Sequence record: NC_005066.1
From: Escherichia phage RB49
Strand: one strand, 5' to 3'
Length of the DNA: 64,000 nucleotides
In this document: one piece after another, positions 1-15,022 of the stretch
Position numbering within the stretch: position 1 is the stretch's first letter
How the letters are laid out: every line of letters begins with the position of its first letter
Program-made: the position numbers and the translations under genes
Notes under the pieces: generated by a model
What the model was told of the DNA's origin: nothing
Databases searched by the model: none
The model's input: the letters and a program-made list of their open reading frames with translations, nothing else

Positions 1-204
1 TTTATAGCTACCCGCATTTTCACTTGTTGCGTCTGCTACAGTTAGCGTAGCTGTGTTATTTTCATGTGGTTGGTCGTCTTTTGTCCATGTATATGTCAAA
101 TTGCTGGGTAATGGTTCGTCACCCGCTACAGTCGCTGTTAAGGTGAAACCATCTCCAGCAAGAAAACATCTTTTGTTAGATTGTATTGATACTGTGAAAG
201 CCAT
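1..204 (-). CDS. hoc: Hoc-like head outer capsid protein, N-terminal Ig-like domain (partial; ATG ~202-204, continues past window start)
   Basis: Minus-strand translation from 204: MAFTVSIQSNKRCFLAGDGFTLTATVAGDEPLPSNLTYTWTKDD... resembles T4 Hoc N-terminus (MTFTVDIT...); Ig-like motifs; position next to uvsW. Confidence 0.5.
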   Translation of the reverse strand, partial: MAFTVSIQSNKRCFLAGDGFTLTATVAGDEPLPSNLTYTWTKDDQPHENNTATLTVADATSENAGSYK

Positions 205-373
205 ATAAAGCCACTCCCATCGAAAATCCGAATTTAATTAATTGAAATAGTTGATTGTCATCAACCAGATAACCATTGCGAGATTCCAATACATGAGTAT
301 TAGAATAGTGATGCAACGAGGCCGAAATAGTATCGATCTCGTCTGGGTATTTGTTCTGTTTGATGTAATACAT
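176..373 (-). CDS. small protein (65 aa) with ESRNGY motif resembling the end of the T4 Hoc capsid-binding domain
   Basis: Track ORF, ATG start; motif KYPDEID...ESRNGY recalled from T4 Hoc C-terminus; weak RBS; may be a gene fragment. Confidence 0.35.
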   Translation of the reverse strand: MYYIKQNKYPDEIDTISASLHHYSNTHVLESRNGYLVDDNQLFQLIKFGFSMGVALYGFHSINTI

Positions 374-468
374 TGATTTTGTTAGACATGTAGTATCCTC
401 TTTTTAATTGCATAACGGAACTACAATTAAAATTATAACAAATATTTCACAACTTTTATCACCCAAAA

Positions 469-1197
469 TTACTTGAGTGTGTGGAATTGGCTATGTTTAG
501 TCTCTCGCACCTTGACAGACCCATCGCGTTTGATATAATAGATCAGTGACTTGAGGGTGTCGTGTACATACGCGTGCGGGAAACGCTCTGGATACTTCTT
601 CCAATCTGGAGTATTAACGATCCAGTCGAAAATCCACCACGGGCAGGAGTAGTAACCACGACCGCCACCGATCAAGCAAATGGTCGGACGGAAGCCAGTA
701 AGATCGCAAAATGAATCAGTGTCATGTGCTGGGGAACGATGTTCTGCTTCGTCAGAGAAAATGTTGGCTACCGGAGATTCCACTTTAACTTCCGGTACAT
801 CTACAACTTCAATTGTAACTGGTACTGTGTGTGGTTTGGCTTCTTCTACAACTTCAATTGTAATTGGTTCTTCTTTTTGTTCTGGTTCTTTCATTGCTTC
901 AACCAGAGACGGATCAACTTCGTCGAATACCACTTTATCATCTACGGTGTCTGCTGCCAGAATAAGATCGTTAATACTGGTTCCTTCTGCCGGAGTTTCT
1001 TCTTCCATTTCGGAAGCCAGTTTAGTTAATTCGGTTTCTACGAACTCGATCATGTTCTCTAGTGATAAAGTCTTTTTGACCTTAATATCAAATTGTTTTG
1101 CGTAGTCAGCTAATTCTGTTTTAGCTGTTTTCTGTGCTTCTTTGTCGTCGGACGCCGCAATAGCGCGGAGTTCTTCGAAATATTCTTTATCAAACAT
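469..1197 (-). CDS. acidic protein (242 aa) in the T4 inh position; C-terminus carries W/Y-rich motif (YYSCPWWIFDW) resembling Hoc capsid-binding domain
   Basis: Track ORF, ATG with AGGAGA RBS; synteny (hoc-inh-uvsW in T4); C-terminal motif similarity from memory only. Confidence 0.5.
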   Translation of the reverse strand: MFDKEYFEELRAIAASDDKEAQKTAKTELADYAKQFDIKVKKTLSLENMIEFVETELTKLASEMEEETPAEGTSINDLILAADTVDDKVVFDEVDPSLVEAMKEPEQKEEPITIEVVEEAKPHTVPVTIEVVDVPEVKVESPVANIFSDEAEHRSPAHDTDSFCDLTGFRPTICLIGGGRGYYSCPWWIFDWIVNTPDWKKYPERFPHAYVHDTLKSLIYYIKRDGSVKVRETKHSQFHTLK

Positions 1198-1231: not shown

Positions 1232-1267
1232 TTTGTATACTGTATTTATTGAGTGAGGCTATTCGCT

Positions 1268-2770
1268 ATGCAAGATATTAAAATTCACTTTCTGAACTAC
1301 TCCCATGTTCAAATTGAATGTAGCGATTCAATTTTATTAGAAATGCGAGATTATTTTAGTTTTGAAGTCGAGGGAGCGCGGTTTCAAAAAAGATTTAAGT
1401 ATGGTGGATGGGATGGGCGTATTCGTCTTTTAGATTACAACGGAAAGCTGCCAATCGGCCTAACTAAAACCGTGGGAATCTTCGCTAAAAATATGGGCTA
1501 TAGCGTATGGGTAGATCCTCGCTTATTCGAAAAAGAACAAGTTACAGAAGAAGAAATTACAAAATGGTGTAATGACTTAGAATTATATTCCGGTGCTAAC
1601 AGGATCACCCCGCACTGGTATCAATCAAAGGCTGTCTTTGAAGGTATTCATCATAAACGCCGTATGTTAGTTTTGCCTACGTCCGCTGGTAAATCTGCGA
1701 TTGCTTGTATGTTGTCTCGTTGGTACTTAGAGAACTACGAAGGGAAAGTGCTGATCATCGTTCCTACCACGTCGCTAGTGCTGCAAATGCGTGATGATTT
1801 TGTTGATTATCGCCAGTTTCCGTATGAAGCAATTCATACTATCATGAGCGGTACTAGTAAACACGTAGGTGATCGCCTGATCGTTGTTAGTACGTGGCAA
1901 TCAGCATGTAAACAGCCGAGTGAATGGTTCCAGCAATTTGGGATGGTTATTGTTGATGAATGTCACAAGGCCACTGCTAAAAACCTGCTAAACATCGTTA
2001 CTGATATGGATCATTGCCAGTTTAAGATCGGTATGACTGGTTCCCCTCGTGACGGGAAAGCTAACATGATGCAGTATGTCGGTCTTTTCGGTGATATTTC
2101 TAAGATCGTGAGTATTGACCGCCTGATGGAAGAAGGTCAAGTGACGAAACTGAAAATCAACTGTCTTTTCCTTCGTTATACCGATGAGGAATGTAGCGCG
2201 GTTAAGGGTAGAGAATATGCGGAAGAGATCAAGTATATTACGTCTAACCCACGACGTAATAAGTTTGCTTGTAATTTGGCGCTAAAACTCGCTAAGAAGG
2301 GCGAAAACGTATTCCTGATGTTCCGCAATACTAAGCACGGAAAACTTATGTATGATGCGTTACAGAAGGTACACGACAAGGTTTATTATATTGACGGTGG
2401 AGTTAAGACAGAAGAACGTGATGAATTTAAGAAATTAGCGGAAGGGGAAACAGGGATCATTTGCGTTGCATCCTATGGTGTGTTCTCTACTGGTGTTTCA
2501 ATTAAGAACTTGCACCATGTTATTTTCGGTCATCCAGTGAAGGAATCAACTATCGTTCGTCAGAGTATCGGTCGTGCATTGCGTAAACATGGTTCTAAGG
2601 ATATTGCAACGGTCTGGGATCTTATAGATCATCTGGCGGTGAAGACAAAGAGCAAGAATGCTAAGAAACAGTTTAGCCACCTTAATTATGCTCTTAAACA
2701 TGCCCTTGAAAGAATAAAAATTTACAACACCGATCGATTCGAATATGTCACGAAAACCATCGAGATTTAA
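1268..2770 (+). CDS. uvsW: UvsW DNA/RNA helicase (SF2)
   Basis: Strong similarity to T4 UvsW N-terminus (MDIKVHF...); Walker A LPTSAGKS, DEAH-like VDECH; track ORF begins at upstream GTG, ATG at 1268 has GAGG RBS. Confidence 0.95.
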   Translation: MQDIKIHFLNYSHVQIECSDSILLEMRDYFSFEVEGARFQKRFKYGGWDGRIRLLDYNGKLPIGLTKTVGIFAKNMGYSVWVDPRLFEKEQVTEEEITKWCNDLELYSGANRITPHWYQSKAVFEGIHHKRRMLVLPTSAGKSAIACMLSRWYLENYEGKVLIIVPTTSLVLQMRDDFVDYRQFPYEAIHTIMSGTSKHVGDRLIVVSTWQSACKQPSEWFQQFGMVIVDECHKATAKNLLNIVTDMDHCQFKIGMTGSPRDGKANMMQYVGLFGDISKIVSIDRLMEEGQVTKLKINCLFLRYTDEECSAVKGREYAEEIKYITSNPRRNKFACNLALKLAKKGENVFLMFRNTKHGKLMYDALQKVHDKVYYIDGGVKTEERDEFKKLAEGETGIICVASYGVFSTGVSIKNLHHVIFGHPVKESTIVRQSIGRALRKHGSKDIATVWDLIDHLAVKTKSKNAKKQFSHLNYALKHALERIKIYNTDRFEYVTKTIEI

Positions 2771-14954: not shown

Positions 14955-15022
14955 GTTTGATTCTCCTTTCGTTTCGGTATGGGTGCATTATAGGGGATCG
15001 GTGACCCCCTGTCAACAACTTT
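14955..15022 (-). promoter_or_regulatory. PeSL-like early promoter cassette with stem-loop
   Basis: gattctcc...gtttcggtatgggtgcattat AGGGGATCGGTGACCCCCT gtcaacaactttt. Confidence 0.65.

Follow-up and report, generated by a model that had tools for sequence, protein, structure and literature searches.

What is the short stretch that separates the genes inh and hoc at the start of the window, the 64,000 nucleotides of Escherichia phage RB49 (record NC_005066.1) analyzed here, and why do two neighboring open reading frames (ORFs) at this place both resemble the capsid-binding domain of Hoc? One of them is inh, coding for an acidic product of 242 residues; the other, referred to as ORF65, codes for 65 residues in another frame. 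The initial annotation, made from the window alone, took the two as parts of an inh-like gene whose Hoc-type module was disrupted by a short insertion or a frameshift, or is joined by recoding. The comparison with relatives leads to a different answer. The stretch 468..205 (-) is very probably the pseudogene scar of a second, long hoc gene, which was deleted in the course of ordinary gene decay.

The first 1300 bases of the window are 98.8% identical to Krischvirus RB49, and the same span is 90–99% identical to 57 Krischvirus records. The order on the minus strand, starting from uvsW, is inh, a 95-nt gap (468..374), ORF65, and hoc. With reference to phage JK32 and other relatives that still have the long hoc gene, the stretch and its downstream neighbor are divided as follows.

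390..468, minus strand: spacer between inh and long hoc, ending in the long-hoc ribosome-binding site AAGAGGA; 92% identity to JK32
354..389, minus strand: 5′ relic of long hoc, with the ATG (389..387), the codons for MSNKINVLHQT, and the CAGAA junction (358..354)
300..389, minus strand: 29-residue frame-shifted ORF from the retained long-hoc ATG; translation MSNKINVLHQTEQIPRRDRYYFGLVASLF
358..370, minus strand: 13-mer tattacatcaaac, long-hoc codons 6–11 in another frame
176..373, minus strand: ORF65, the ORF168.2 of RB49, 65 residues, in a frame other than that of inh; peptide of its conceptual translation, YPDEIDTISASLHHYSNTHVLESR
245..352, minus strand: 3′ relic of long hoc, its final 36 codons (native frame), KYPDEIDTISASLHHYSNTHVLESRNGYLVDDNQLF, from alignment to intact genes
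286..272, minus strand: codons of the ESRNG loop in the 3′ relic, equal to ORF65 residues 30–34
242..244, minus strand: former stop codon of long hoc, TAA changed to CAA, from comparison with intact genes
205..241, minus strand: degraded spacer between long hoc and hoc, the terminator hairpin gone, from alignment to JK32
1..204, minus strand: 5′ end of hoc, which codes for the short 404-residue Hoc and is cut by the window start; translation MAFTVSIQSNKRCFLAGDGF

The translation MAFTVSIQSNKRCFLAGDGF is the N-terminus of kaaroe Hoc. As hoc starts at 204 (-), ORF65 overlaps its first 29 nt.

The relatives were found by tblastn with ORF65. The matches are confined to Krischvirus and fall in 57 records, which by tblastn coverage comprise 39 RB49-type, 12 Phi1-type, and 6 intact ones. 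The six most divergent matches (74–82% identity) belong to JK32, Brandy, SSG23, SFHK24, G2248, and UPWr_E1. We read the locus in five of these genomes (JK32, Brandy, SSG23, G2248, and UPWr_E1), and each has an intact long hoc of 846–847 residues between inh and hoc, with the ORF65 match being the C-terminus of the intact long Hoc. The ordinary Hoc encoded beside it has 408–410 residues, compared with 404–410 across relatives. The long gene of JK32 is annotated as “head outer capsid protein”, and one IMG/VR contig and one Logan contig also carry an intact copy. A scan of viral contigs with ORF65 returned only two loci, and a word-index protein search with the 80-residue C-terminus of long Hoc returned two candidates; Hoc C-termini were then gathered from IMG/VR. 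Long Hoc begins with MSDKINILHQT or MSNKINVLHQT, preceded by the ribosome-binding site AAGAGGA, and contains several immunoglobulin (Ig)-like domains (Ig_3, Ig_2, and I-set). Its C-terminus, which reads RYVHPIPWRRTSFQYQGYWVLDEIDRCNREGLNWLEDFEHTKYPDEIETIAASLHHYSNTHVLESRNGYLVDGTQLF before the stop codon, aligns to T4 Hoc 293–366 without gaps (E = 4e-12).

The stretch in the window matches both ends of this gene. Window 458..358, from the upstream spacer through the first 11 long-hoc codons, shares 92% identity with JK32 (L005:10-111); for window 360..150, with the last 40 long-hoc codons and the hoc start, the identity is 86% (L005:2502-2724). About 2.39 kb is missing between these two matching blocks. 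The 5′ relic aligns to the starts of the intact genes of UPWr_E1, L011, and JK32, the 5′ end of UPWr_E1 being the closest. Relative to UPWr_E1, 2312 nt (L009:194-2505) and another 75 nt are deleted, and a repeat slip accounts for 9 nt more. Since 2312 is not divisible by three, the frame of the retained start differs from that of the 3′ relic. The Phi1-type genomes keep 35 long-hoc codons (MSNKINVLHQTEDPVYGSVGHPLLLKIVVSTADFIAE), which belong to the first Ig domain; these abut the 3′ relic directly at C-AAA-TAC-CCA, and the 9-nt slip in them sits inside a GATTTTA repeat. In the RB49-type genomes, including the window, a further 75 nt is lost between two CAGAA repeats. Of the 5′ part, only the ribosome-binding site, the ATG, and 11 codons have survived. 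They are now joined to the final 36 codons of the gene, but in a different frame. The lesion is hence a deletion of about 2.4 kb instead of the short insertion or frameshift proposed at first.

The fusion also explains the N-terminus of ORF65. Its first nucleotides, A-ATG-TAT-TAC-ATC-AAA, are the long-hoc codons AAT GTA TTA CAT CAA ACA (NVLHQT) read one base off. ORF65, with its beginning MYYIK, exists only because this out-of-frame ATG happens, once the 75 nt is gone, to share the frame of the 3′ relic. Its YYIK is therefore a phase coincidence and not homologous to the YYIK of Inh, on which the initial annotation had based a shared junction. The two 13-mers are indeed 170 nt apart (540..528 and 370..358) and agree at 12 of 13 positions, and one-mismatch matches to the YYIK 13-mer are expected about 0.3 times per 64 kb; the pair is at chance level, being one of 10 comparable two-copy repeats in 1.15 kb.

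The remainder of ORF65 is authentic Hoc sequence. Residues 7–45 align without gaps to residues 349–387 of RB49-type Hoc (E = 4e-8), and ORF65 also matches T4 Hoc, the Hoc PHROG profiles (E = 1.6e-6), and, at 65 of 65 positions, phrog_32100. It had no match in a Pfam scan with a local copy that lacks the Phage_Inh models. The proximal half of the capsid-binding domain (YVHPxPxR, GWWVxDEI, and DW) has been deleted, and the distal 36 residues remain. The Ig-like domains of long Hoc fall within the deleted segment, and there are none in ORF65. The pairing of KYPDEID with DYPEVDV of T4 Hoc, suggested earlier, is out of register, as the gap-free alignment places KYPDEIDT opposite KYYLHRYT of T4.

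A side observation concerns the loop. Over the 18 nt that code for it (TGGAATCTCGCAATGGTT; 271..288 (-)), the relic does not differ from the short hoc of the same phage (L002:4782-4799), although the overall identity of the relic to the short-Hoc domain is only about 36%. The Arg codon of the loop is CGC in the relics and in short hoc and CGT in intact long hoc. The identical 18-mer could be due to a small gene conversion or to chance.

The relics have lost the signals that bound the intact gene. The stop position of long hoc is TAA in 6 of 6 intact genes and CAA in 11 of 11 relic sequences, which prolongs ORF65 by 22 codons through the former spacer into hoc. The terminator hairpin 3′ of the intact gene (GCCGACCTTCGGGTCGGCTTTT in JK32, an annotated terminator in G2248) is gone; the window has a gap of about 15 nt at this site and a shorter sequence without a hairpin, and no terminator-like site was found on the minus strand of the relic stretch. 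No Shine-Dalgarno sequence precedes the ATG of ORF65, in agreement with the poor ribosome-binding site noted before. The native frame of the 12 Phi1-type records follows a TAG and contains an internal TTG but no ATG. We then compared the segregating sites in the 36 native codons. The 11 relics have 1 synonymous and 10 nonsynonymous sites, whereas the six intact genes have 23 and 4 (Fisher p = 2e-5), corresponding to a ratio of nonsynonymous to synonymous polymorphism (pN/pS) of 3.5 in the relics and 0.10 in the intact genes. One of the relic changes, in JSE, turns ESRNG into EYRNG. The frame from the retained start is annotated in JSE as a 29-residue hypothetical protein, and its Phi1 counterpart is the 54-residue ORF168.1.

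We next consider inh, with these features.

469..1197, minus strand: inh, 242 residues, acidic product; putative prohead protease inhibitor, Pfam Phage_Inh_N and Phage_Inh_C
472..663, minus strand: Inh residues 179–242, homologue of the Hoc-type domain, from profile comparison
528..540, minus strand: 13-mer tattatatcaaac, the true Inh codons for YYIK
1253..2770, plus strand: uvsW, the neighbor of inh

Inh 1–242 aligns end to end with T4 Inh 1–226 (45% identity, E = 2e-55), and both share the final TLK before the stop. It covers phrog_1051 over 1–229 of 229 columns (E = 7.5e-76), and close relatives of Inh carry PF26097 and PF26098. An exhaustive HMMER search with Inh 151–242 found 88 representative proteins of 118–279 residues; in the full-length members the match reaches the protein C-terminus, and no Hoc-like protein is among the 88. 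The C-terminus of Inh is thus complete, and no absent C-terminal piece is left for ORF65 to supply. By its sequence, inh is a separate intact gene and the orthologue of T4 inh; inhibition of the prohead protease gp21 would be its function solely by virtue of this orthology.

Two further observations concern inh itself. The part coding for the acidic linker has a 45-nt tandem duplication (800..889, 78% identity; PITIEVVEEAKPHTV then PVTIEVVDVPEVKVE), and a weak match of Inh to the repeat protein 6xi1 in the Protein Data Bank (PDB) stems from this low-complexity linker. In the record of phage TB34, inh is annotated as two coding sequences (380-517 and 523-1104) and uvsW is split too, which suggests frameshifts or sequencing errors in that assembly; split genes in Krischvirus can be assembly artefacts.

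The Hoc-like motifs of Inh have an explanation other than those of ORF65. By BLASTP, Inh has a weak 36-column match to T4 Hoc (E = 0.003), and its PHROG match to Hoc is weak as well (E = 0.04). Because of the weakness of the pairwise match, the C-terminus of Inh was examined by profile comparison. The 120 homologues listed from a word-index search were all close (86–96% identity), and the diversity of the profile came from the exhaustive HMMER search. Aligned by hhalign, the 83-sequence Inh profile matches the profile of 16 diverse Hoc C-termini over 61 columns with a probability of 96.5% (E = 9.3e-10). An independent run scored 54.1; the highest score among 40 column shuffles was 15.9, and the reversed alignment scored 10.6. 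Inh 179–242 lies opposite T4 Hoc residues of about 301–365, an approximate mapping, as the template starts near Hoc residue 288. The domain in the window reads PWWIFDWI, DWK, and VRETKHS, in this order. The positions that align are WW (Hoc W309/W310), the Asp of DEI (D313), and DW, and the RETRNS of the Inh family stands opposite QESRNG of Hoc.

A predicted structure was compared as well. In the AlphaFold2 model of Inh, the block means of the predicted local distance difference test (pLDDT) are 95–98 for residues 161–242, which form a strand (182–185), two helices (187–195 and 209–225), and two further strands (228–232 and 237–241) with the conserved loop between them, the pLDDT of these elements being above 95. 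The best fold match among 350,542 PDB chains is the Hoc C-terminal domain (8t1x_X), with a probability of 0.92 and a root mean square deviation of 2.6 Å over 63 columns; its E value is 0.41, which is not significant alone, and the template modeling score (TM-score) normalized to the target is 0.48. A phmmer search of Inh against PDB sequences returned no Hoc chain at E ≤ 10. Its top match, a flagellin hook IN-motif repeat protein, covers only the acidic linker and was rejected as compositional. The precomputed Pfam matches record no match of Phage_Inh_C on Hoc proteins. In all likelihood, the C-terminal 64 residues of Inh are a complete, diverged homologue of the Hoc capsid-binding domain throughout the family, including T4 (L004:3328-4008), and this homology is the reason for the Hoc-like motifs in Inh. 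The literature search found no published link between the Inh and Hoc domains, and Fokine et al. (2023; Viruses 15:1517, PMC10385173) makes no mention of Inh.

The WW, the Asp, and the Glu-Thr/Ser-Arg-Asn at the positions where Hoc contacts gp23 are conserved across the Inh family. This conservation raises the possibility that Inh docks at the center of gp23 hexamers, perhaps on the prohead. That the domain serves Inh for binding to the gp23 lattice, at the Hoc site or close to it, is a tentative proposal, to which we give somewhat less than even odds. If it is true, inh and hoc would be neighboring descendants of one capsid-binding module. The shared domain itself provides a testable idea for the location of a poorly studied minor head protein.

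These results confirm in part what had been concluded from the window. The 242-residue acidic ORF, the 65-residue ORF in the other frame, the 95-nt gap, and the motifs quoted from them are all present, and both ORFs do resemble the Hoc capsid-binding domain (E = 4e-8 for ORF65 and 9.3e-10 for the Inh profile). The two pieces, however, do not concatenate into one domain. Inh 179–242 spans the whole Hoc domain and ORF65 only its distal half, so the pieces overlap. A direct BLASTP comparison of ORF65 with Inh found no similarity (E = 7.5), which indicates that the two pieces with YYIK are not paralogous at the protein level. The idea of a disrupted inh-like gene is right in that Inh has a Hoc-type module and that a gene was disrupted here with a change of frame, but the gene is long hoc and not inh.

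A longer ancestral inh, whose Hoc-type module was split into the 242-residue ORF and ORF65 by an insertion or frameshift, would account for the Hoc-like motifs in both ORFs and for their adjacency on the same strand. Yet Inh aligns to T4 Inh through the last residue, in 88 of 88 representatives its C-terminal domain is also the end of the protein, the equivalent of the ESRNG loop is already within Inh 179–242, and the counterpart of ORF65 in relatives is the 3′ end of another gene, which is intact there. The two parts thus belong to separately conserved genes, an outcome that the initial annotation had itself named as refuting its view. We give a split inh virtually no probability. Hardly more credible is a programmed frameshift that joins either Inh or the 11-codon long-hoc start to the KYPDEID...ESRNGY frame, yielding a small capsid-binding product. 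A good ribosome-binding site with an ATG (389) does lie 37 nt 5′ of the native-frame relic, offset by one nucleotide, and, with 75 being divisible by three, the second deletion leaves the frame relation the same in RB49-type and Phi1-type genomes. From Inh, however, two recoding events would be needed, because a stop lies 11 codons 5′ of the ORF65 ATG, and the frames of Inh and ORF65 do not overlap but are separated by the 95-nt gap. The junction, read by eye, has no recognizable slippery heptamer; the Rfam scan of the spacer gave no match, and the fold of the spacer RNA is only marginal against shuffles (z = -1.96). The target frame has the excess of nonsynonymous changes described above, with the ESRNG loop itself altered in JSE, and in Phi1-type genomes it lacks an ATG. 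Recoding, which the initial annotation had left as an option, is thereby excluded in practice.

ORF65 could instead be a real gene for a small Hoc, whose peptide would attach to the Hoc site of gp23 hexamers or mask it. About 39 of the 57 records have the ORF open; it has a PHROG family of its own (phrog_32100) and retains the ESRNG loop, in which mutations alter the capsid binding of Hoc according to earlier work cited by Fokine et al. (2023; PMC10385173). The same paper describes Arg300, Trp306, Trp310, and Asp313 of T4 Hoc as contacting gp23 in the T4 complex or, for Asp313, as holding the loop; all four are in the proximal half that ORF65 is missing. In addition, ORF65 has no Shine-Dalgarno sequence, its ATG is absent from the 12 Phi1-type records, its polymorphism is dominated by nonsynonymous changes, and its last 22 residues are a read-through of the former stop, the former spacer, and the hoc start. 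We therefore regard a functional small Hoc as very unlikely.

We favor the relic of a second hoc gene. An ancestor would have had the long hoc of 846–847 residues between inh and hoc, and about 2.4 kb would have been lost in the lineage of the window; this fusion would have broken the frame, and the stop has also changed from TAA to CAA and the terminator disappeared. That the direction was deletion and not growth of a gene is suggested by several signs that agree: the stop and the terminator are lost, only half of the domain is left, and the constraint is relaxed. The relic probably makes no functional protein, as far as its sequence tells. Initiation at the retained site would yield a nonsense peptide of 29 residues, and, with the terminator lost, the stretch would now be only transcribed spacer between inh and hoc.

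Some points weigh against this account. Four of the seven segregating sites in the 29-residue frame are synonymous, which is weakly compatible with selection but not significant. The nucleotide diversity of the spacer 390..468 is 0.002 among the 11 relic-bearing genomes vs 0.04–0.06 in inh; the conserved spacer and the kept ribosome-binding site show that something in the stretch is still constrained. The base-by-base reading covers 11 relic sequences, the other records being classed by tblastn coverage alone. The spacer also contains a 9-bp inverted repeat, TTTTAATTG and CAATTAAAA, just 5′ of the ribosome-binding site.

The event is of a routine kind, the deletion and decay of an accessory gene, and long Hoc is already annotated in several records. 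Of the results, the corrected annotation and the relation of the Inh domain to that of Hoc are the most useful. ORF168.2 of RB49, ORFan168.1 of phi1, and phrog_32100 should be relabeled as pseudogene relics of long hoc and not kept as hypothetical proteins. The labels given to the stretch by some pipelines at present are “Hoc-like head decoration” and “capsid and scaffold”. As a natural example, the locus is a clean one: some members of the genus have two Hoc proteins, and most have lost the long one. This is relevant to users of RB49-type phages in Hoc display and mucus-adherence studies, and the crystal structure of RB49 Hoc is the reference structure.

The window has further features outside this question. 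The 3′ end of inh contains a perfect sigma-70 consensus (TTGACA, 16 nt, TG, TATAAT; 12/12) at 512..539 (+), antisense to inh, built from the YYIKRDGSVK codons and directed toward uvsW. It is the sole plus-strand one of seven perfect TTGACA-N16-18-TATAAT sites in the 64-kb window. It is kept in every Krischvirus locus examined, with one synonymous spacer change in the intact-gene lineage, and is absent from T4-type inh. Its possible roles are those of an early ‘anti-late’ promoter or of an early uvsW promoter. In the perfect sigma-70 promoters at 15015 and 21718 (-), the two hexamers flank a GC-rich palindrome, TTGACAGGGGATCGGTGATCCCCTATAAT in one and nearly the same sequence in the other; both promoters look like the promoter-early stem-loop (PeSL) cassettes reported for RB49 and phi1 by Arbiol et al. 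(2010). An extra gene of 361 codons in JK32, between uvsW and uvsW.1 (L050:2294-3379), has no Pfam match and is absent from the window, kaaroe, Phi1, and JSE.

In T4, the order uvsW, inh, hoc is the same as in the window, but hoc follows inh directly, with neither a long hoc nor a relic. Compared with T4 Inh, the inhibitor of the prohead protease gp21 with PF26097 and PF26098, the Inh of the window is a full-length orthologue between uvsW and hoc that differs in a longer acidic linker with the 45-nt tandem duplication, and its loop reads RETKHS in place of the family consensus RETRNS. In the C-terminal domain of T4 Hoc (residues 281–376; PDB 8t1x and 8t9r), ORF65 residues 8–43 correspond to the distal half, with the loop Glu355-Ser356-Arg357-Asn358-Gly359 and its two flanking strands. 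Compared with the T4 domain, ORF65 lacks the proximal half, the Ig-like domains, a start and a stop codon of its own, and purifying selection.

The two small ORFs of the stretch have been listed before. In Arbiol et al. (2010; Genome Biol Evol 2:140, PMC2839356), ORF168.2 is a newly added ORF of RB49 and ORFan168.1 is given as unique to phi1; both are listed as ORFans of unassigned function in the neighborhood of the “variable” hoc gene, and no origin is offered for them. In our terms, ORF168.2 is ORF65, and ORF168.1 is the product from the retained long-hoc start. At that time there was no genome with an intact long hoc for comparison, and the words ‘remnant’ and ‘pseudogene’ are absent from their text; the literature search found no interpretation of the stretch as a relic in print. 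Phages with two Hoc proteins are known, such as Serratia phage Muldoon (1174 and 314 residues) and Enterobacter phage PG7, both described by Fokine et al. (2023; PMC10385173). The passages of that paper examined here, those on RB49 among them, make no mention of the Krischvirus long Hoc or its relic, and the word ‘paralog’ is absent from it. JK32, Brandy, SSG23, G2248, and UPWr_E1 resemble Muldoon and PG7 in pairing a Hoc of 846–847 residues with an adjacent one of 408–410 residues, both of which end in a capsid-binding domain with the ESRNG loop. In the window, unlike in Muldoon and PG7, the long copy has shrunk to a scar of about 150 nt, which leaves the phage with the short Hoc only.

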